A stretch of DNA of 43,002 nucleotides, from the IMG/VR virus record IMGVR_UViG_2565956721_000005. The stretch is one strand, 5' to 3'. The notes under the pieces are model-generated. The model was given only the letters and a program-made list of their open reading frames with translations, was not told the DNA's origin and made no database searches. Origin of the DNA: a virus. Taxonomy: Duplodnaviria > Heunggongvirae > Uroviricota > Caudoviricetes. A program made the translations under genes and the position numbers. This document shows, piece by piece, positions 1,920 through 26,945 of this stretch. How positions within the stretch are numbered: the first letter of the stretch is position 1; each line of letters starts with the position of its first letter.

Positions 1920-4894
1920 TATGCAAGCCTCACAATATAGTTAAATGCGATGTTTTTGACGGTGTTTTCCGCGTTACCAGCAGCGTTAACGGTGATGGTG
2001 TGTCCATGTGAACCAATCGCAACGGAGTGCGTATGCGCACCAATACCTACAGTATGTGCATGTGCGCCAGAACTTGCTGCAGTACCAGACAGCGAGTGGG
2101 TATGAGCACCTGCTGACTGTGTCTGAATACGTTGATAATACGATCTACGGGAAGAAGTCCCCGGGCTTACTTGATACTGTGAATCCTGGACATAAGTGAA
2201 CCCACCGCCATCATAAAATGCTAACGCAGAACCGCCGCCTCCTGGCCAACGAATACCATTACCATGAGTATGATCACCGGCAGACCCCGTAGAGCCACTC
2301 AGACTGTGCGTATGCGCCCCGGTGTTATTCGTGGATTTGGTTCCGTAATCAAACGACGATGTGTTTTTCGTCCCCAAATCCGTACTGGATGCGCTGGCGC
2401 TGTGGGTGTGCGATTTAATGCCGTCCTGTTCCTGAGACAATACGGCACGACCACTGGCGGGTTTGCCCTTAATCGTCCAGCCACGCATATCAGGGATCAC
2501 GCCTGACGGATAAGCGGCTGCAAGTTTCGGGTATGCAGATTTGTCAAAAGTCTGCCCCTGCATCAGGGCATAGCCAGACGGAACGGTATCTGATGGCCAC
2601 GGGATTGGTGCGCCAGGCGGATAAAACTGCTCTGATGGCGTATAGAGTGAATAAACTGTACCGTCCGTTAACCCTTCCGGCTTATTAGCAGAATATGCTG
2701 GTGACGTATGAATCGTCACGCTGGCATTACTGGTATAATCCCATTGAATATTTACACCAGTCGCATAATTTCCGATTGCAACGTAAATATCGTAAGTATC
2801 ACCAGATGTATTGACCCAGGCAAAATTTGTAAACCCTGTCGATGTGCGCTGCCATAAAGCACCAGTAATCCCCTTCGGATTACCATTACCTGCACGCAAA
2901 ACAAGTTCAGATATACCTGCCTGTTGAGGTGACCCCACGTTAAATCCCGCACCACCAATCAACGTAATTGAAACAACAGAACTCGCCTGTGGCATGGTTA
3001 CCGTTGCTAATTTGAACCAACCAGCACCACCGCTGAATGACATTGTTGTTGAGTTAAGCGTACCAATATCTTTCGGCGTCAGTGTTATATCCGCTGAAAG
3101 CGCCTTACCATTCACCTTACGGGCAGAAGGTACCCGACCATTCGCATTATTATTAGCTGCTTTCACTGCTTTCGGTGTCGCGGCAAGCGTTTCAGATGCG
3201 CTGTTGGTTGCACTACTGAGCTGGACAATTCCTTTTTGTGCTGTCGTAGCGTCCTGAGCAGTATATTTCCCGTTAGCAAGGTCATAGGCTGCCTTTACCG
3301 ACTTTGGCGTTGCCGCCAGCATTTCAGATGTGCTGTTGGTCGCGTTGCTAAGCTGAACTATCCCTTTCTGTGCTGTCGTTGCATCCTGTGCGGTGTATTT
3401 CCCGTTAGCCAGCTCATACGCGGCCTTAACGGCTTTTGGCGTTGCCGCCAGTGACTCGGAAGTGCTGTTAGTCGCACTGCTGAGCTGTACTATCCCCTTT
3501 TTCGTCGTGCTCGCATCCTCAAGCGCCACGGCGGATGCAATATCCTCTGCCCGTTTTGCCGCTGTCTCAGCGCGCGTTGCCGCGGATTCCGCCGTACTTT
3601 TGCTCTGAGCTGCCGCCGTCGCACTGCCAGCTGCCTCTGTCGCCTTCGTGGATGCCGTCGTGGCGCTGCCCTTTGCTGCTGACGCCTGTCTGGTCGCCTC
3701 ATCTTTTGAAGCAGACGCAGATGATGCCGATGACGCCGCCGAACTGGCGGACGATGCGGCAGCCGTTTTTGAGGATTCTGCGCTGGTTTCCGACGCTTTC
3801 GCGTTCGTCTTGGATGTCTTCGCTGCGGAAGCAGACCTCGCTGCTGCGCTGGCCTGTACAGCGGCTTCGCCAGCCTTCGTTGTGGCTGTTGAAGCAGACG
3901 ATGCAGCACTTTCTGCCGATTTTCCGGCGGCGGTGGCACTGGCTGAGGCCTGCCCGGCACTTGTTGACGCGGCACTGGCAGATAATGCAGCCGCTGTTTT
4001 TGAGTCTGCCGCAGCTGAGGCGCTCTGTCCCGCTGCCGTTTCAGAAGACCTGGCGTTCGTCTCGGACGTTTTTGCCGCCTTCGCAGAATTTGCTGCCGCC
4101 GTTGCCGAGGAAGCTGCGCTGCTGGCGCTCGAGGCTGCGTTCGTTTCTGATGATTTTGCCGCCTCTTTTGAAGCCGACGCATCCCGTGCTGAAGTGGCTG
4201 CTTCTGACGCTTTCGTGGTCGCGGTGGATGCAGAAGTGGCTGCTGATTGTTGTGACGCTGCGGCATTCGTTTCTGACGTTTTCGCGGCACTGGCGCTGGT
4301 AGCTGCCGCGCTTTTTGATGACTCTGCAGCAGCAGCACTTTTTGCTGCTTCACGGGCCTTTGTCGATGCCGCTCCTGCGCTGGAAGACGCTGACTGAGCC
4401 GACGACGCGGCCTGTCCGGCTGACGTGCTGGCGGCACGTGCTGAGGCTGCAGCATCGGTTGCATGAGTTGCCGCCTCGCTGGCTGATGCACTGGCATCGC
4501 TGGCTGATTTTTTCGCGGCTGCCGTATTCTGTGCAACCGCGGAGGCGTTACGTGACACCTCTTCCACCATCTGCTCAAAGCGGCGCAGTGCCTCCGGTCG
4601 GACATCATCCTCCGTCATGGCACCGAGAAAATCATTCAGCGTACCTGGTCTGGAACCTTCATAGACGGTAATGGTCCCGGCATGTGAAGGCGGAAAACCT
4701 TCAACCAGCAGGGTGACGCTGTACTGACCATGCTCAACATCCATGCTGTAACGCCCGGCTTCATCCGGATTTTCAGAGGCCACCGTGTTCACCACCACCG
4801 TGCTGCTGGTCCGTCTGGCCTTCAGCACAATGGTGCAGTTCTGTACTGGTTTTCCTGTGCCATCTTTAAGCACGCCAGAAATTTTTACTGTCAT
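1919..4894 (-). CDS. stf: side tail fibre protein Stf
   Basis: 991 aa; N-terminus [20 protein letters not shown]..., Ala/Ser-rich central repeats and C-terminus ...[31 protein letters not shown] match recalled lambda Stf. Confidence 0.9.
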
Positions 4895-4896
4895 AC

Positions 4897-4928
4897 TTTT
4901 CCACCAATAAAAAAAGCCCGCAGCAGTG
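4897..4928 (-). terminator. intrinsic terminator downstream of lom
   Basis: Minus-strand hairpin CCCGTGGCGTCACTGCTGCGGG followed by T7. Confidence 0.6.
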
Positions 4929-5045
4929 ACGCCACGGGCTTCAGGACAGTGTAACTTTACGTTTCCTCAAACGCAGTTCACCCCATAAGGCGGATGAACC
5001 TGCGTATCATAACAATATTTACAGAAGATAAATCGGCGTCTGTTG

Positions 5046-5645
5046 TCAGAAACGGTATCCGATACCAACAATAAATGCATCCGTTCGCCAGTCGCCACTA
5101 CCGGAACCTTCATAAGCAAGGTCAATGGTCACGGATTCGGTCGGGTTAAACTGCACGCCAGCCCCCCACGCCAGAGACGTGTTGCTGTGGCGACCGTCAT
5201 CACTTCCGGTCAGCACATCGTGCGTTTTCCCCTTGTTGTCAGTTACGCGGAGATAATCCCCGGAGAAAGTCGACACACGGCTGTAAGCCACACCCGCCAT
5301 CGAATACGCGCTGAACCATTCATTCACGCGTACAGACGGCCCCGCCATCACGCTGAACCAGCGGTTACGCACGGAATCTTCATGCCAGCGGGTATCGCTG
5401 TAGTGCGTTTTTTGCTCATCCTCAGCATTGGCATAACTGAAGGACGTAATCAGCCCCAGCGCGTCCGTAAACTCATAACGGTATTTCACGTTAATCCCGT
5501 TCAGATTATCGCTGCCGGGAGCGTTCGTACGGGCATGAAGATACCCCGCGCTCAGTGTGGACTGATGTTCAGACGCCCATGCAGGCGCACCGGATACGGA
5601 CAGACAGATGGCTGCGGACAAAATGACTGCACAAACTTTACGCAT
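5046..5645 (-). CDS. lom: outer membrane protein Lom (Ail/Lom family)
   Basis: 199 aa with signal peptide; near-identical to recalled lambda Lom (…GINVKYRYEFTD…GSGSGDWRTD…). Confidence 0.9.
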   Translation of the reverse strand: MRKVCAVILSAAICLSVSGAPAWASEHQSTLSAGYLHARTNAPGSDNLNGINVKYRYEFTDALGLITSFSYANAEDEQKTHYSDTRWHEDSVRNRWFSVMAGPSVRVNEWFSAYSMAGVAYSRVSTFSGDYLRVTDNKGKTHDVLTGSDDGRHSNTSLAWGAGVQFNPTESVTIDLAYEGSGSGDWRTDAFIVGIGYRF

Positions 5646-5712: not shown

Positions 5713-7524
5713 TCAGCTGATACTGATGCCTGCGGTGGCTTTCTTCATCACCACAACCAGCAAATCGCTGATACTTGCTGTGGGATACCAGTTATTCACC
5801 AGCCATGCTGACACCGAAAACTCCAGCGTCATGTGGCCGCGACCAGCTGGCATATCAATAACACCACTGTAAATCAGCGTATTATCCAGCGCGGTACGGT
5901 TATAAATTTCAGCACCGTTTTTCCGTACTATCAGGCGGCATGACGAATAAATATCGTTATTCTCCCGCTCATGTTTAGCGCCGCTGAATGCCACCGCCGG
6001 AATAACAATCTGCCGGTCAAACGGCTGATCGTCATAAACCCTGACGGTGATGGTCCCTGATGGCCACCGTTCCGGTGCACGGGAGTCCCGGGGGAAAGCT
6101 TTGCCCACTGTTTTAACGAGATCGCCTTCAATCTGGTTGGCGGACAATTTTCCCAGAACCCGACAGTTCTCGTTAATCGTGACGTTGTTGAGCGTCCCGG
6201 AGTTCGCATTCACGTTACCGCTGATATCGGCATTTTTCGCCGTCAGCCGCCCGTCCGGTGTCAGGGAAAATGCCGGAGGATTACCGCCGCTGGTAATGGT
6301 CGGAGCCGTCAGGCGTTTCAGGAACACGTCGTTCATGAATATCTGATCGCCCTGACCAACAAACATCGGCTTTGTGTTGCCATTCGCAGGATTAATCATC
6401 GCAATCCGGTCAGCAGCCAGAAGCACCTGACTCTGCATACCTGCTGGCGTATTCTCAATACCGGCTCCGATACCCGCAATATAAAGGCGTCCGTCCTTCA
6501 TCTGCTGCAGTTTCACGGCCCACATGCTGTTCAGGTTATTATTTGTATCAACCTGAACTTTCTGTATCTGCTGGATTGCCGCACTCTGGTCTTCCAGTTT
6601 TTTATTGACGGTCTGCGTGATTTCATTGCTGACATTCGTAATGGACGTCCTGATTTCAGCCAGGTCCGGCGCAAGCTGACCGTTATCAATCTGCGTCCAC
6701 AACTCCTGGGCCAGATGTGTTTTCCCGATTTCTCCTTTGAAAAAATCCAGGTAACCTTCCGCATCATCGCTCGCCCGACCGACAGCCTCCACGAATGCCG
6801 ATTTGCCAACGGTGTTCACACTGCGAACGTAAAAATAATAATCATGGCCCGGTTTGATATTGATACTGGCGGCTATCCAGTACAGCGCCGTACCAAGATA
6901 GCGGGCTGTGGTTTCAACCTGCCTGATATCGGTAATCCGCTTTTCCGAGAACCAGAACTCAAACTGTACCGTCGGGTCATAAACAGCAAGATGCGGCGTG
7001 GCGGTTATCTGAAAATAGCCCGGCGTCAGCTCAATCCTCGACGGTGCTGCCGGTGCGGCAATCCGGAACGATACCGACGCCGGATCGCCCTGCTGCCCCC
7101 GGGCATTTACCGCCCGGACTGTCAGCCTGTAGTTCCCCAGCGCCAGTTGCGTGAAGCGGTATGTGGTTTCCGTCGTCCGGGCCGTGCTGACCAGTCGCTC
7201 ACTGCCGTCGTCCGCTGTTACGGTCAGACGGAGCAGGAAGCTCACGCCCTTCACCACCTTCGGTGTGTCCCATCGCGCCAGCACCTGATATTCCCCGCTG
7301 TCTGCAGTGACTTCGGCGGTCAGGTGCTGCACTGCTGGCGGCGTGACACCATTCACCGTGCCGCTCTGGTCACCGTCAAAGTGCGCCCCGTTATCCACGA
7401 TGGCTTCTTTCTCCGGTACATGCTGCACGGCGGTGATGGCATACGTGCCGTCATCGTTCTCACGGATACTCACGCAGCGGAACAGGCGCTGGCGCAGGTT
7501 TGTTAATGGAAAGGAAGCCGCCAA
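5713..7524 (-). pseudogene. J: host specificity protein J, C-terminal about 600 aa only (5' half deleted)
   Basis: Frame matches lambda J from ...[28 protein letters not shown]... to the C-terminus; no native start; fused to the 3' end of L. Confidence 0.85.
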
Positions 7525-18989: not shown

Positions 18990-19192
18990 AACCTCACTCC
19001 CAGCGGACGACGGCGACGGCGGGTTGTCCCCAGTACCGACTCCGCATCATTGATCGCCCGGTTAAGCTCATCCAGAGAAGCTGCCGTATATTCAATTCTG
19101 CGACCATCTTTCTGGACAGACACCACCCGTTTACCGGTTAATAAATCAAGGCGCGCCTGACGCAGCGCCTGCAGTTCAGCGACTGTAACCAT
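18986..19192 (-). CDS. W: head-tail connector protein W
   Basis: 68 aa ...LLTGKRVVSVQKDGRRIEYTAASLDEL... matches lambda W. Confidence 0.85.
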   Translation of the reverse strand: MVTVAELQALRQARLDLLTGKRVVSVQKDGRRIEYTAASLDELNRAINDAESVLGTTRRRRRPLGVRL

Positions 19193-21104
19193 TCACTCCT
19201 CCGGACAGCTTCGCTGCCAGTTCTTTAAGGGTTGGCCGGGTCGTCTCTTCTTCCCGGGATTTTGCCAGTACAGCCAGATCAAGCTGCCAGCGTTGCACGG
19301 ACACACGTAATGCCGCGTAGGCATACACCAGGCAGTCCAGCGCTTCGTTACGCCGCTTTTTGTTATCCCACAGCAGACGCATCTTTCCTTTTTCCCACTT
19401 CTCCACAAGCTCTTCCGCCACCAGTTGCTGCGCCTCTGTCTGCGAAAAAATCTCCGGATCATCAGGAAAACGGATGGCATACGACGTGGCTTCATCCGCA
19501 GGCGTGGGATCGGCTTTCATACGGGCATAGAGAATTTCTTTTGCGGTGTCCGTCCCCACTTCGCACAGATACACGCCCCGCTGATTGCGGGTTTTTGGCA
19601 TGGTGATCACCGGCTTGCCATAAACAGATGCACCTTTTACCGGCAGCACCCGGAAAACACCGTGTTTTTTTGACCTCTGATAGACAATTTCGCCATCGAT
19701 CCCCCCGGTGTCCCAGCAGACACGGGAAATGGTCATTTCGGTTCCGTCTGCATGGCGGTATTTTTTGTTGATCGCCACATCCACACGTAACAGCGTCTCG
19801 TCCTCATCGGGACGCCCCATAATGATGATTTTATCCACCAGAAAGGCTTCCTCTCCCGGAGCCCATCCCCAGACATACATCTCAAAACGGTTTCGCTGCG
19901 AGTCAATGCCCGCCGTCAGATAAACCACCCGGGAAGGCACCGCAGCCGTGTAACGCACAACCTTATCCATCAGCACCTGGTGATCGAGTTTTTCGCCCAC
20001 GGCCTCTTCCCAGGTCTCGCCCAGCGTGGTGTTCACAAAGGTTTTCAGGCCGTTGGGATCTTTCAGTGCATCCAGCCAGTCATAGACAATCTGTACCCAG
20101 GTGGTGAACGGACTGTACGCCGTCCAGATATGGAATGTGATGGAGCGCGGCGGCGGAATTTCATTATCCGCGGCGCTGAAAAATGTCAGACCGTCACGAG
20201 TCCACATGCCCGTGTTTTCACAGATCCACCGCCCGTTACTCTGGTCAAGCTCAGACTGATGGATCACACAGCCATGATGCTCACAAAGGTAGAAAACACT
20301 TTCTGGCTTATTCTTCTCCCACTTAAGACCGAAAGGCGAGGCATCATCGCCAAATTTCAGATACTGCTCCTCCCCACAGTGCGGACAGGGCACATAAAAA
20401 CGCATGAAATGTGCCGACTCGTTAGCGGCTTTTTCGATCTGGCAGGAGCCTTTGATTTTAGGCGTCGAGCCGCGAATGGATTTTGGCCATACAGAGCCCT
20501 CAATACGTTTATCCCCCAGCAGGGTTGGCGAACCCTCTTTTTCAACATCCGGTTCGAACGAGGAAAGCTCGTCATAACAAACCACATCCACGGATTTTTC
20601 ACGGTAGTTTTTTGCTGCCGCTCCCCCCAGACACCAGAAACCCACACCGGAGGAAAAACGCTTCAGGGTGAGCGTATTATCGCGGTGTTTTCTTCCGAAC
20701 CATGGAGCCAGCTCCAGCAATGCAGGAACATCCCTTATCGTTGGCTCAACATGAGATTTCATAAAATCTTCAGCAGCTGAGTCCGTGGGCTGAAAAAGAA
20801 GGCTGTTGCGTGATTTATGCTCAATAAAATAAGCCTCCACTCCCAGCAACATCTTTGTATAACCAACACGGGCAGATTTAATCAGGTTAACAGTGCGAAT
20901 CAAATCGTTGCCCATACAGTTCATGATGCCAACCTGAAACGGCAGTGTTTCCCACCGCCCCGGGGTATAAGACGACTCTTTAGGAAGGTAATAATGTTTA
21001 TTGGCCCACTGAACTGTCGTCAGTGGAACAGGAATAATGAGAGATAAAAGCCCTGTAGCTATCGCACCGGCTGCATTAGCTGCCTTCTGTGCGTCTGAAA
21101 TCAT
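19176..21104 (-). CDS. A: terminase large subunit A (start placed at MISDAQK, overlapping Nu1 end)
   Basis: Extensive match to recalled lambda gpA (…[17 protein letters not shown]… …[14 protein letters not shown]… …[11 protein letters not shown]…). Confidence 0.9.
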
Positions 21105-21624
21105 CGATCCACCCGCCCACGTTTTCACCGGCCTTAGCTGCAACATTGGAGGCTTTCGCGATTTCAGTTTTCACCACATCAAGGTGTGATGGTGAAATGT
21201 CCGGATATTTACGCTGTAATGTCAACGGCACACGCACAAGTATCCCCGAAATCTCCTGTGCCACACGTTGCAGAATGAAGGTAAACAGTTCAGTTTCCAG
21301 CACCACTCCGTCTTCACGGGCATTTTTCAGTTCCTGCGCATCTGCCTGCGCTTTTGTGAGCCGGTAGCGTTCATAGTCAATGGTGCCGGGTTGTAAATCT
21401 GACTCCGCTGCCGCACGCAAATCGGCCAGTTCTTTGCGGAGCTTTTCGTTTTCGATATCAGTTTCCCTCTGCGCATACCACTGAATTGCCATGGCAGTAT
21501 CAAATACAGATTCAATGCCCTTACTGCCTTTGGAGACGCAAGGGAGCCCCTGAGACTGCCAGCGTTCAATCGTCCGCGGGTCCACGTTAAAAATTTCGGC
21601 AAGCCTCTTTTTATTAACCTTCAT
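21076..21624 (-). CDS. nu1: terminase small subunit Nu1 (start at [12 protein letters not shown])
   Basis: ...VNKK.LA.IF......TI..WQ.QG.P... ...[26 protein letters not shown]... matches lambda Nu1. Confidence 0.9.
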
Positions 21625-21699
21625 AGAACAACCCATTATCAAATACAAGGCCCGACATGAAAACGCCAGAAAAAGGCATTTTCGGACACTTTCATGTCG

Positions 21700-21840
21700 G
21701 ACATTTATGAATGCAATATTAAAAAAAACAAAAAGTTATATTCGAGAAGTACCGACACGATTTTCCCTGAAAAATTTTCATAAATAGTGAAAAACCGCGA
21801 GGTCGCCGCCCCGTAACCTGTCGGATCACCGGAAAGGACC
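21700..21840 (-). other. cos site: cosN 12-nt cohesive end (plus 21800-21811) with cosB on the Nu1 side and cosQ-like sequence on the other
   Basis: Minus strand reads ACGGGTCCTTTCCGGTGATCCGACAGGTTACG GGGCGGCGACCT CGCGGTTTTTCACTATTTATGAAAA, matching the recalled lambda cos. Confidence 0.9.
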
Positions 21841-22010
21841 CGTAAAGCGATAATGATTATCATCTACATATCACAACGTGCGTGGAGGCCATCAAACCAC
21901 GTCAAATAATCAATTATGACGCAGGTATCGTATTAATTGATCTGCATCAACCTAACGTAAAAACAACTTCAGACAATACAAATCAGCGACACTGAATACA
22001 GGGCAACCTC

Positions 22011-22244
22011 ATGTCAACGAAGAACAGAACCCGCAGAACAACAACCCGCAACATCCGCTTTCCTAACCAAATGATTGAACAAATTAACATCGCTCTTGTT
22101 CAAAAAGGGTCCGGGAATTTCTCAGCCTGGGTCATTGAAGCCTGCCGCCGGAGACTGTGCTCAGAAAAAAGAGTTTCGCCTGAAGCAAACAAAGAAAAGA
22201 GTGACATTACTGAATTGCTCAGAAAACAGGTCAGACCAGATTGA
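22011..22244 (+). CDS. small basic protein, possibly ribbon-helix-helix (YlcI/DUF3950-like, from memory)
   Basis: 77 aa MSTKNRTRRTTTRNIRFPNQMIEQINIALVQKGSGNFSAWVIEACRRRL; opposite strand to phage late genes. Confidence 0.5.
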   Translation: MSTKNRTRRTTTRNIRFPNQMIEQINIALVQKGSGNFSAWVIEACRRRLCSEKRVSPEANKEKSDITELLRKQVRPD

Positions 22245-22301
22245 AGCAATTTAGATAATCGTGCAGACTACCCCCCCTCATATCACATGGAAGGTACTAC
22301 A

Positions 22302-22712
22302 ATGGCTCAGATTGCCATTTTTAAACAAATATTCGATAAAGTGCGAAATAATTTAAACTATCACTGGTTTTATTCTGAACTAAAACGTCACAATGTCTCA
22401 CATTACATTTACTATTTAGCCACAGAGAATATTCATCTTGTTCTTGAAAACGATAATACGGTTTTAATAAAAGGACAGGGTAAGGTTGTAAATGTAAGAT
22501 TTTCAAAAAATAAATGCCTTATAGAAGCCACCTTAAAAGGATTCAAATCAGGAGAGTTATCATTTTACGAATACAGGAAAAATCTTGCTACAGCAGGGGT
22601 TTTCAGATGGATTACAAATATCCACGAAAACAAAAGGTATTACTATACCTTTGATAATTCATTACTCTTTACTGAGAACATTCAGAACACTACACAAATA
22701 TTTCCGCACTAA
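22302..22712 (+). CDS. hypothetical protein (YbcV/DUF1398-like, from memory); AT-rich moron
   Basis: ORF with GGAAGG RBS before MAQIAIFKQ; AT-rich; ORF track gives 22287 as an alternative start. Confidence 0.5.
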
Positions 22713-23019
22713 ATCATAACGTCCGGTTTCTTCCGTGCCAGAACCGGACTCGCTGGCATGATGAAATATGTGTACCCGGTAACCCCGGTGTGCATCGTTT
22801 TTGATTATTCCCCCACACTTGTGCAGAAGGAGTTCCCCGTCAGGCTACAGTCATAATTAATGCAAGAGTACAGCGACGATACAGCGCACAGAAATAAATC
22901 AGGTATCCATTGACTTCACAAAGACGGTACATAGCATCGACAGGAGTAATTGCGTAAATTGAACTCTTGGCACACTTTAGCCACCGGCGAATCTTCAGCG
23001 GATTATCCTTGGCCGGTTT

Positions 23020-23484
23020 TTATCTGAGGCATTGCTCTCGAATGTATAGCTGTGCCCCTTCAAGTTGTTTTTGCATTATTATCAGTCGCGCTCTGAGGGT
23101 GAAATAATCCCGTTCAGCGGTGTCTGCCAGTCGGGGGGAGGCTGCATTATCCACGCCGGAGGCGGTGGTGGCTTCACGCACTGACTGACAGACTGCTTTG
23201 ATGTGCAACCGACGACGACCAGCGGCAACATCATCACGCAGAGCATCATTTTCAGCTTTCGCATCAGCTAACTCCTTCGTGTATTTTGCATCGAGCGCAG
23301 CAACATCACGCTGACGCATCTGCATGTCAGTAATTGCCGCGTTCGCCAGCTTCAGTTCTCTGACATTTTTGTCGCGCTGGGCTTTGTAGGTAATGGCGTT
23401 ATCACGGTAATGATTCAGCCCCAGACTAAGCGCACCACAGGCCACCAGCAGGGCAATGATGACCACGCACAGTACGCGGTTCAT
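23020..23484 (-). CDS. Rz: i-spanin Rz
   Basis: 154 aa ...[78 protein letters not shown]... near-identical to lambda Rz. Confidence 0.95.
23082..23264 (-). CDS. Rz1: o-spanin Rz1 (lipoprotein embedded in Rz, +1 frame)
   Basis: 60 aa [58 protein letters not shown] matches lambda Rz1. Confidence 0.9.
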
Positions 23485-23782: not shown

Positions 23783-24316
23783 TTATCTGTCGATACCCCA
23801 GCACGCCAGCGCGCTCTCCTGGTCACGACGGGATACCTGACCGTAGCAGTTGTTTGAACGAATACGGCAGTCTCTGCCACCGTCCTTAATCCACCAGCGA
23901 ATCGCCTCACACGCTCCCCTGCGATCACCTGCATTAATTCGTTTATAAAACGTCGACGGGAAACACTTACCGGGACCAATGTTGTACGGACAGAATGACG
24001 CGATCCCCGCTTTCTGGGGTTCGCTCAATGGCACTTTGATGTTTTTCTCCACCCATGCCAGCGCCTTATCACGCTCAATGGCGTTGACCTGGTCGCATTT
24101 TTCCTTCGACAGTTTCATACCGGGAAAAACGGGTTTTCCATCCACCATCGTGGCCCCCCGACAGATGGTCCAGTTGCCGGAACCATCGCGGTATGCCGTA
24201 GTGTGGTTACCCTCTTTTTCATCCAGAAACTGGTCAAGTATCTGAGGAGCTGATGCGCCTGCTCCAATCAGCGCCAGAACTGCAGCTGACAGGCCGTATT
24301 TGATTTTTGCGTTCAT
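23783..24316 (-). CDS. R: SAR endolysin (T4-lysozyme-like, GH24) with N-terminal signal-anchor-release domain
   Basis: 177 aa; Gly/Ala-rich weakly hydrophobic N-terminus then E...D...T catalytic spacing; matches recalled RrrD/P21-type lysozymes. Confidence 0.9.
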   Translation of the reverse strand: MNAKIKYGLSAAVLALIGAGASAPQILDQFLDEKEGNHTTAYRDGSGNWTICRGATMVDGKPVFPGMKLSKEKCDQVNAIERDKALAWVEKNIKVPLSEPQKAGIASFCPYNIGPGKCFPSTFYKRINAGDRRGACEAIRWWIKDGGRDCRIRSNNCYGQVSRRDQESALACWGIDR

Positions 24317-24421: not shown

Positions 24422-24694
24422 ATGGACAATAGCACCATTTCTCTACAGGAGTTGCTCGACTGCATTTCCAGGCTTCGGGATGATGTAAATGCCCTCACTG
24501 TTGCATTTTCACATCTGGCCTTATCAATTCCCAGGGAGCAAATGCTGCCAACGCTGGCATCCATTCATTTTGAATCACGCAACCCCAAATGGTCCCAGGA
24601 ACAACAAAATTCTTTCAAGTGGCTGGCGGCATTGCTGGAAGAAAATTATGCTGGCAAAACTACCATTTCGGCGGAGTCTTCAGGGAACCAGTAA
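24422..24694 (+). CDS. hypothetical 90-aa protein on the strand opposite the lysis genes
   Basis: AAGAGGA RBS 6 nt before ATG; plausible helical protein; overlaps 3' end of the ydfR-like gene by 35 nt. Confidence 0.4.
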   Translation: MDNSTISLQELLDCISRLRDDVNALTVAFSHLALSIPREQMLPTLASIHFESRNPKWSQEQQNSFKWLAALLEENYAGKTTISAESSGNQ

Positions 24695-25004
24695 TCCTTC
24701 CCGGTAGCTTTCCTTTGTAGGTTATCCATACATTCTGCGCCTCTAAAATTACGGGGCGCTTTTCCGGCGACTGCTCATCCCCTTCACATAACCCGGCAGC
24801 GACATCCAGGAAGACCTGTCTGATGCTCCTTCTGGCCGCTGCCTCATAAAACTCCAGCGCAGCACCTTCAACACGGTCCAGCGAGATGTCCAGGTCAAAA
24901 ATTTCACCGTCAAAGCGTTCTTTGTCCTGTAATGCTAAAGTTACCGTAACTTTATTCTCAAAATTGCGGATCCCTTTCACAATCAGTTCATAGTTTTGAG
25001 TCAT
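24660..25004 (-). CDS. lysis-cassette protein of unknown function (YdfR/DUF1327-like, from memory)
   Basis: 114 aa, start 4 nt after holin stop with RBS GGGGAGAG inside the holin 3' end. Confidence 0.55.
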   Translation of the reverse strand: MTQNYELIVKGIRNFENKVTVTLALQDKERFDGEIFDLDISLDRVEGAALEFYEAAARRSIRQVFLDVAAGLCEGDEQSPEKRPVILEAQNVWITYKGKLPGRITGSLKTPPKW

Positions 25005-26695: not shown

Positions 26696-26772
26696 TGGCG
26701 CGTTGTACTGGATTCGAACCAGTGACCGATTGCTTAGAAGGCAATTGCTCTGTCCGGCTGAGCTAACAACGC
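26696..26772 (-). tRNA. argO: tRNA-Arg, anticodon UCU (reads AGA/AGG); argO-like
   Basis: Cloverleaf read by hand: acceptor GCGTTGT, anticodon loop CTTCTAA, T-arm ACTGGTTCGAATCCAGT, 3' GCCA. Confidence 0.85.
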
Positions 26773-26785
26773 AGGATACAGATAA

Positions 26786-26862
26786 TGGACCGCCTTCGGG
26801 GACCCGAACTCCGCGCAACCAGCTTCGAAGGCTGGCGCTCTTTCCTGATGAGCTAATGGCGG
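26786..26862 (-). tRNA. argN: tRNA-Arg-like, anticodon UCG; non-canonical T-loop (TTCGGGT) and one acceptor-stem mismatch
   Basis: Cloverleaf read by hand: anticodon stem CCAGC/GCTGG, loop CTTCGAA, D-loop with GG, 3' ...GGTCCA. Confidence 0.6.
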
Positions 26863-26869
26863 TATGTGA

Positions 26870-26945
26870 TGGTGGCCCTTGCTGGATTTGAACCAGCGAC
26901 CTGGCGATTATGAGTCGCTCGCTCTCACCACTGAGCTAAAGGGCC
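26870..26945 (-). tRNA. ileZ: tRNA-Ile2, anticodon CAU (lysidine type, reads AUA); ileZ/ileX-like
   Basis: GGCCCTTTAGCTCAGTGGTGAGAGC...CTCATAA...GGTTCAAATCCAGCAAGGGCCACCA; near-identical to recalled E. coli ileX. Confidence 0.85.

Follow-up and report, generated by a model that had tools for sequence, protein, structure and literature searches.

The ynfO/ydfO pair between cos and Rz

The two small plus-strand genes that lie between the cohesive-end site (cos) and the spanin gene Rz of IMG/VR virus record IMGVR_UViG_2565956721_000005 are a pair that is already catalogued, as ynfO/ydfO (ylcI/ybcV), and that lambda and most Escherichia coli prophages carry beside cos. The stretch analyzed, hereafter the window, is 43,002 nucleotides long and is a lambda-family prophage. 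We are highly confident that the two genes are this known accessory cassette, that they are two independent modules, and that they constitute neither a toxin–antitoxin (TA) system nor a set of structural proteins. The first open reading frame (ORF), the ynfO-like gene, occupies 22011-22244 (+) and encodes 77 amino acids (aa), and the second, a DUF1398 gene of the ydfO/ybcV/lambdap78 type, occupies 22302-22712 (+) and encodes 136 aa from the RefSeq/PGAP start. Use of the first ATG, at 22287, would instead give a 141-aa form (22287-22712); the start at 22302 is preceded, at a distance of 7 nt, by a GGAAGG Shine-Dalgarno sequence and yields the length of the 136-aa YdfO and YbcV proteins of K-12. 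The cos site is identified by the 12-nt cohesive end GGGCGGCGACCT of cosN at 21800-21811 (-), an exact and unique match with 0 expected by chance, whose flanks align with the cos regions of lambda, 434, Qin, and DLP12. It is the right end of the packaged genome, and the cassette begins about 200 bp away. The gene for the Nu1 small terminase (21076-21648, -; Pfam Phage_Nu1, 2.3e-81) forms the boundary across cos, and Rz (23020-23484, -, with Rz1 embedded at 23082-23264; Pfam Phage_lysis, 1.4e-52) forms the far boundary of the cargo slot. All late genes are read from the minus strand, which places the pair antisense to their transcription, and in this respect the initial annotation, which had placed two opposite-strand genes in a cargo hotspot between Rz and cos, described the locus correctly.

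The product of the first gene matches Pfam DUF3950 (PF13132; E=2e-20, 72.8 bits against a cutoff of 25), the NCBIfam family YlcI/YnfO (NF041551; 35.2 bits, cutoff 30), and phrog_949, and it contains the segment GNFSAW, which includes the conserved NFS motif of the DUF3950/YlcI-YnfO family. The second product had been described as DUF1398-like, and it does match Pfam DUF1398 (PF07166) over profile positions 1-119 of 119 (E=3.3e-43), as well as PDB entry 2HH8, "hypothetical protein YdfO" (E=2e-69). Among its relatives, YbcV (76.5% identity), lambda p78 (75%), and YdfO (74%) are closer to it than YcgX (41%).

A comparator locus with the same layout is that of the Qin prophage of E. coli K-12, in which nohA/Nu1 and cos are followed by ynfO (b4533, 234 nt), a 57-nt spacer, and ydfO (b1549, 411 nt), and which is also similar to the window in having a 97% identical YnfO. 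It differs in that its DUF1398 allele has diverged, in one residue of YnfO (Val-30 in the window), and in that the cassette abuts gnsB in Qin and Rz in the window. The pair is therefore not the distinctive one that the initial annotation implied, being the same as ynfO-ydfO of K-12, with both genes also present in lambda alongside bor. In E. coli ATCC 11775, S88, UM146, IHE3034, NU14, and other strains the 1.37-kb cos-Rz interval is 100% identical to that of the window, with the first gene annotated "ynfO: YlcI/YnfO family protein" and the second "DUF1398 domain-containing protein". More widely, DNA encoding the N terminus of YnfO is matched in 4184 of 5426 complete E. coli genomes (∼77%), with up to 12 copies in each, and the DUF1398 gene in 5376 of the 5426 (∼99%); the DUF1398 allele of the window is itself found at ≥99% identity in 1063 E. 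coli genome records. The pair is thus one of the commonest among E. coli prophage genes and is not peculiar to the window.

A second layout is seen in the DLP12 prophage of K-12, where the order is nohD-ylcI-ybcW-ybcV-borD-rzpD, and in lambda (DE3 record), where a 64-aa YnfO-like ORF is followed by lambdap79 (ybcW) on the late strand, lambdap78 (ybcV, DUF1398), and bor. Both resemble the window in carrying the two families in the cos-Rz slot opposite the late genes and in having a nearly identical cos-to-ynfO leader, but in lambda the late-strand p79 gene interrupts ynfO after about codon 55, with bor downstream, two genes that the window lacks. From the sequence, the p79 module of lambda would seem to have been inserted into the ynfO tail of an ancestral Qin-type arrangement. 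The p79 gene has been reported as the trigger of the Vulcan NADase defence system, and phages that escape Vulcan lose lambdap79 by recombination with Qin, which leaves an arrangement like that in the window (bioRxiv 10.64898/2026.09.04.749371). The YnfO-like (DUF3950) ORF of lambda, about 200 bp from the right end (48139-48303, complement; 2294-2488 of the DE3 stretch), is under purifying selection yet is unannotated in J02459 and NC_001416.

Independent assortment of YnfO and DUF1398

YnfO and DUF1398 assort independently, in both directions. In a tblastn search of a phage collection, YnfO-like sequences were found in 155 records and DUF1398 in 43, and YnfO is present without DUF1398 in at least 112 phage records. 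In phages 434 and 2G7b the order is cos-ynfO-bor-Rz, and in BP-4795 and Stx1_699, which have a packaging module of the HNH/TerS/TerL type, ynfO stands alone between the HNH endonuclease gene and Rz. A census of the slot downstream of ynfO in 80 IMG/VR prophage loci, chosen by the YnfO N terminus only, gave DUF1398 directly in 41 loci and p79, DUF1398, and bor together in 6; bor alone followed ynfO in 12, p79 alone in 10, and other content (e.g. a late-strand Rha-like gene) or nothing before Rz in 9, with DUF1398 missing from 31 loci in this way, and 2 contigs were truncated. The slot between the constant ynfO and Rz therefore shows the presence/absence variation of a moron site, in agreement with the hotspot character assigned to it beforehand. 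Deviant composition, the other hallmark, is seen in DUF1398, which has a G+C content of 31.1% against 51.1% for the window, as the description of an AT-rich second gene had it, while ynfO (44.9%) is only mildly deviant. In some of the prophages a late-strand ORF of 205 aa, Rha/antirepressor-like in appearance when read by eye, occupies the ynfO-Rz slot (e.g. 4383-5000 (-) of one locus), so the slot takes cargo on both strands.

The reciprocal case, DUF1398 without YnfO, is represented in K-12 by ycgX, which adjoins bluR with no DUF3950 gene nearby, and by 20 solitary loci in Kluyvera, Pseudocitrobacter, Klebsiella, Raoultella, and Salmonella diarizonae, sampled with a 5-sequence alignment of a DUF1398 subgroup. 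A DUF3950-like ORF was found within 5 kb in 0 of these 20 enterobacterial loci, whose DUF1398 genes neighbour housekeeping or effector genes, among them those for a MASE4-GGDEF cyclase, a cold-shock-domain protein, GAPDH, a sulphur transporter, and SopE. The locus of Salmonella enterica subsp. diarizonae (3587-5396 of its record) does not look like phage, and in it some 700 bp separate a divergent solitary DUF1398 gene from one for a sopE-type type III effector. A scan of viral contigs with a single DUF1398 protein returned near-identical loci only and sampled no diversity.

The family is small: phmmer, run exhaustively against 1.84 billion cluster representatives, gave 188 clusters at E≤0.001, and these are mostly fragments or error-laden lambda copies; the full-length divergent members that could be placed are all from Enterobacteriaceae. 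Hundreds of ∼3.5-kb "metagenome" contigs in the European Nucleotide Archive are error-laden copies of the lambda right end that resemble sequencing-control DNA, and matches identical to lambda are labelled Staphylococcus aureus, Bacillus sp., the spider Caerostris extrusa, or "Campylobacter phage CJLB-4". Contamination derived from lambda thus inflates the homologue counts of both families.

These distributions bear on the resemblance to an antitoxin plus effector that the initial annotation had noted, and which is not supported. In a type II TA system YnfO would be a ribbon-helix-helix (RHH) antitoxin that neutralizes a DUF1398 toxin and represses the operon, an arrangement for which obligate co-occurrence of the partners would be expected. 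We regard this as very improbable, given that the partners are found apart in both directions, that solitary DUF1398 genes persist in many chromosomes, that in lambda and DLP12 the YnfO-like gene and DUF1398 are ∼0.7 kb apart and split by an oppositely oriented gene, and that there is a 14-point gap in G+C content between the two genes. The properties of the DUF1398 protein, described below, speak in the same direction.

Properties of the YnfO and DUF1398 proteins

The ynfO ORF is a genuine gene under purifying selection. Over codons 1-52 in 10 homologues (lambda, 434, 2G7b, 2H10, BP-4795, Stx1 phage, Lys8385, DLP12, Qin, and the window) the numbers of variable sites at codon positions 1/2/3 are 9/4/31, and in divergent pairs the proportion of synonymous differences (pS) is 0.44-0.70 and that of nonsynonymous differences (pN) 0.07-0.10, with pN/pS of 0.10-0.21. 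The protein is of 9 kDa with a pI of 10.9, and it has a basic arm with 6 Lys/Arg and 0 acidic residues among residues 1-16; its N-terminal ∼50 aa form a nearly invariant core, and the C-terminal tail is variable. Codon 30 (22098-22100) encodes Val in the window (IALVQKG) and Glu or Asp in all other homologues compared; the substitution removes a charge in predicted helix A and is common to the identical B2-type E. coli strains.

An AlphaFold2 model of YnfO, built from a shallow alignment of 18 sequences, has an extended N terminus followed by helices at 19-32 and 34-52, with a core predicted local distance difference test (pLDDT) value of ∼85, and the two predicted helices would be linked by a G-S-G-N-F-S turn in RHH-like fashion. 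YnfO is similar to RHH regulators and antitoxins (Arc/Mnt of P22, CopG, MazE6-type) in being small, in its basic N terminus, and in having two predicted helices of the right lengths, but it differs from them in lacking significant profile-level similarity and a cognate toxin. With Arc, whose sequence was entered by hand, the segments N-I-R-F-P...G-S-G-N-F-S of YnfO and N-L-R-W-P...G-R-S-V-N-S align without gaps; hhalign gave the first half of this register only (YnfO 11-33/Arc 8-30), and the second half is a manual gapless extension. The hhalign comparison with Arc was not significant (E=0.03), nor was that with a Mnt-family profile built from database matches (E=0.39), though both fell in the expected register, with NIRFP of YnfO against NLRWP and NFRMP. 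Pfam at E≤10 gave no RHH family for 18 YnfO members, a PDB profile search with the YnfO alignment was empty, and Foldseek of the small YnfO model against the PDB gave no match at E≤0.001, the model being too small to inform. The RHH-like N terminus proposed for the first gene is therefore unconfirmed by Pfam, by the PDB profile search, or by hhalign against Arc and Mnt; an RHH-like DNA-binding fold is the most likely one for YnfO as modelled, and its membership of the superfamily is putative.

The DUF1398 protein has a well-defined predicted structure (AlphaFold2 pLDDT 88.5, predicted template modelling score 0.81) with an internal duplication of a helix-helix-strand-strand-strand unit, and its fold is that of the solved member YdfO (2HH8), the only match in a fold search. 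In an alignment that reaches down to 23% identity, the invariant or nearly invariant residues are L, Y, T, N, A, G, W, and Y, which are structural, and there are no conserved acidic, His, or Cys positions of the enzyme type. There is no transmembrane or hydrophobic segment (maximum 19-residue Kyte-Doolittle value 0.39) and no signal peptide, which by sequence makes the protein cytoplasmic. Against toxin and defence profiles, Pfam gave DUF1398 alone, and the sole PADLOC match had E=0.026. A toxic function for DUF1398 is further disfavoured by the production of YdfO in quantity for the nuclear magnetic resonance structure 2HH8 in a structural genomics effort, and by a CRISPR interference screen in which lambda p78 was non-essential and its knock-down left plating unaffected (PMC10695390).

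A different possibility is that the proteins are structural or packaging accessories, with DUF1398 in the virion and YnfO acting as a cos- or terminase-associated factor. It is suggested by the phrog_413 label "head and packaging: head protein", which is repeated in RefSeq phage records, by the name "putative envelope protein" given in lambda, and by the position of YnfO, which always adjoins packaging genes in phages of both the Nu1/A type and the HNH/TerS/TerL type. However, the two genes are oriented against the late operon, and most lambda-like phages with the same set of head genes lack DUF1398 (43 versus 155 records). DUF1398 also occurs alone outside prophages, and neither its dispensability in lambda nor its lack of a hydrophobic segment or signal peptide fits such a role. 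Primary evidence for the "head protein" and "envelope protein" labels was not found, and conserved structural or packaging function, which the initial annotation had named as one finding that would overturn it, is thus unsupported; of the alternatives considered here we give this one the least credence.

DUF1398 and/or YnfO might also take part in phage–phage or phage–host conflict, as a prophage-expressed factor for superinfection exclusion, defence, or anti-defence. The cos-Rz slot is a variable cargo hotspot, the p79 protein encoded next door in lambda is sensed by Vulcan, and DUF1398 is AT-rich, fast-evolving, and present in several copies per genome, all of which would suit such a role. 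The lack of a meaningful PADLOC match, the placement of solitary chromosomal copies beside housekeeping genes and not in defence islands, and the fact that the literature searched assigns no such role make it improbable, if less so than a TA system.

The cassette can also be compared with the bor and lom morons of lambda, which it resembles in lying between conserved late-region genes, in a predicted transcription independent of the late operon, in being dispensable for lytic growth, and, for DUF1398, in deviant base composition. Bor is an outer-membrane lipoprotein with a serum-resistance phenotype, and in this it differs from the DUF1398 protein with its predicted cytoplasmic location.

No function for DUF1398 or DUF3950 is assigned in the literature searched, and a 2025 systematic annotation effort lists ycgX with "no consistent functional inference". 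A reported resistance to oxidative stress upon YdfO overexpression (PMC4077768) was considered and rejected; the study cited for it (PMC3105296, Wang et al. 2010) reports on YfdK, YfdO, and YfdS of prophage CPS-53 and never mentions YdfO, so the attribution is a mix-up of gene names and is to be disregarded.

Putative expression signals, proposed mechanism, and neighbouring genes

The leader from cos to ynfO (21812-22010, +) has a mean column identity of 95%, with its last ∼110 nt identical in 7 phages and prophages, and it should hold the ynfO promoter. Within it an inverted repeat, ATCAATTATGACG-N7-CGTATTAATTGAT (21909-21941), lies 70-100 bp 5' of ynfO with 13-nt arms that are 85% complementary. 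The repeat is invariant across the 7-sequence alignment and as an RNA fold is not significant (z=-1.4), and to judge from the sequence it could be an operator. The leader as a whole is nearly invariant in lambda-type phages and unrelated in the HNH-type Stx phages that retain YnfO, and for this reason no common YnfO operator can be named.

Inside the 3' end of ynfO, at 22225-22241 (+), there is a 17-mer, AACAGGTCAGACCAGAT, containing a GGTC-A-GACC palindrome, with a single exact match in the window against 0.01 expected. It is identical to the site that genomic SELEX (systematic evolution of ligands by exponential enrichment) identified for the regulator PdhR between ynfO and ydfO in K-12 Qin, and ybcV mRNA is 10-fold lower in a pdhR mutant (PMC7660256). 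The 17-mer is ∼60 nt before the DUF1398 start and at roughly the -35 position relative to a putative -10 hexamer, GATAAT (22254-22259, +), which stands 5' of the DUF1398 gene and is shared by the window, Qin, lambda, and DLP12, though the consensus promoter scan did not call it. In lambda and DLP12 the 17-mer is retained upstream of DUF1398 despite ylcI being ∼700 bp off. Homology between the window and lambda 5' of DUF1398 extends from the GGTCAGACC palindrome, which in the window lies inside the ynfO 3' end, to the ATG, and DUF1398 thus travels with its own ∼75-nt upstream segment, GATAAT included, in both layouts. K-12 transcript data indicate that ydfO and ybcV are transcribed and regulated; besides the PdhR effect, an imidazolium ionic liquid strongly raises ydfO expression in exponential-phase cells (PMC4077768).

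The spacer between the two genes contains a C7 tract (22272-22278), for which related loci have G+C5 or G+C4, and a 1-nt length polymorphism at this position, in the putative DUF1398 promoter or leader, shifts the relative frame of the two ORFs. In the window the 141-aa form of DUF1398 continues the frame of ynfO (22242-22301), with only a TGA stop between the two, and a 233-aa "fusion" protein cluster, P0134, exists with 761 members and W at the TGA position. Programmed read-through of this TGA was rejected, as the two ORFs are in different frames in 37 of 80 related loci and an additional stop is present in 8, and the P0134 fusion is probably a product of gene calling with genetic code 4. 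Just 3' of the DUF1398 stop a hairpin, GTCCGGTTTCT...AGAACCGGAC (22721-22749), folds at -15.2 kcal/mol (z=-1.6); it was considered as an intrinsic terminator and set aside, being weak and without a U-tract, with the terminator scan silent. Rfam gave no match in the cassette region.

On the mechanism, we propose a transcription unit that would begin ∼200 bp from cos and be read against the late operon, with ynfO as its constant first gene. YnfO would dimerize through its N-terminal ribbon in the RHH manner and bind DNA, and it may serve as a small regulator of this antisense, lysogen-side unit, controlling its own expression and the level of the downstream cargo. DUF1398 is AT-rich cargo, acquired independently, that would have its own host-regulated promoter, and its product, a soluble, non-enzymatic α/β protein, most likely acts on host physiology by binding a partner and not as a toxin. 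The specific regulatory mechanism for YnfO is a tentative proposal that we rate at somewhat below even chances, and the account as a whole, with the identity of the cassette and the mechanism taken together, is probably the best explanation of the locus. A more ambitious version, in which YnfO is a conserved, lysogen-expressed RHH regulator that anchors the slot between the lysis and packaging modules in both the Nu1/A-cos and the HNH/TerS/TerL architectures and controls antisense transcription or gates cargo, with DUF1398 as a platform for ligand or protein binding that influences host physiology or the interplay of phage and defence, is a speculation we consider unlikely to be right. Were YnfO such an anchoring regulator, lambda itself would carry an unannotated regulator ∼200 bp from cos.

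Several observations weigh against the proposed account. The consensus scan found no plus-strand sigma-70 promoter upstream of ynfO, there is no operator common to lambda-type and HNH-type phages upstream of the gene, and the role suggested for DUF1398 is drawn from negative results only. In addition, every inspected phage record that has DUF1398 also has YnfO, which makes a regulatory link specific to the pair possible. YnfO would in that case be a dedicated regulator with DUF1398 as its effector, controlled for example through the GGTCAGACC palindrome at the ynfO 3' end, and such a link is consistent with the position of YnfO upstream of DUF1398 in every DUF1398-bearing phage record or prophage locus inspected and with the retention of the palindrome and spacer 5' of DUF1398 in both layouts. 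Yet the conservation of YnfO is no lower where it is followed by bor, p79, a late-strand Rha-like gene, or no gene at all, and YnfO is absent from the solitary DUF1398 loci. The palindrome, being a match to a reported PdhR SELEX site with a corresponding effect of pdhR mutation on ybcV mRNA, is already explained by a host factor. A dedicated pair therefore seems unlikely to us, although it is the least improbable of the alternatives. With YnfO constant and the cargo interchangeable, any regulation by YnfO would concern the slot and not DUF1398 specifically, and the idea of a regulator plus cargo survives only in this general form.

As a discovery the cassette carries little weight, the pair being annotated in K-12 and present in lambda, with one member structurally solved. 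Its residual value lies in the y-ome problem, in that genes among the commonest of E. coli prophages still have no assigned function, and here the options are narrowed to independent modules that are neither a TA system nor structural proteins, with YnfO constant in a slot of swappable cargo. The analysis also flags the misleading annotations "head protein" and "envelope protein" and the confusion of YdfO with YfdO.

Other features of the window lie to either side of the cassette. A large gene of terminase size spans 19176-21146, on the far side of cos. Beyond Rz, the lysozyme ORF (23783-24316, -; 177 aa) is intact with a full-length Pfam match, and its ATCC 11775 counterpart, rrrQ, is flagged as frameshifted by RefSeq over a 535-nt span (6134-6668 of that locus). 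Within the lysis cassette there is another opposite-strand ORF, of 90 aa (24422-24694, +), which runs at its 3' end into the DUF1327/YdfR gene (24660-25004, -); Pfam gave no match for it, and RefSeq calls it a "hypothetical protein" in ATCC 11775. Upstream of the lysis cassette, at 26696-26945 (-), are three phage tRNA genes, Arg-tct, Arg-tcg, and one with a CAT anticodon, which is assigned to Met by ARAGORN and to Ile by RefSeq.

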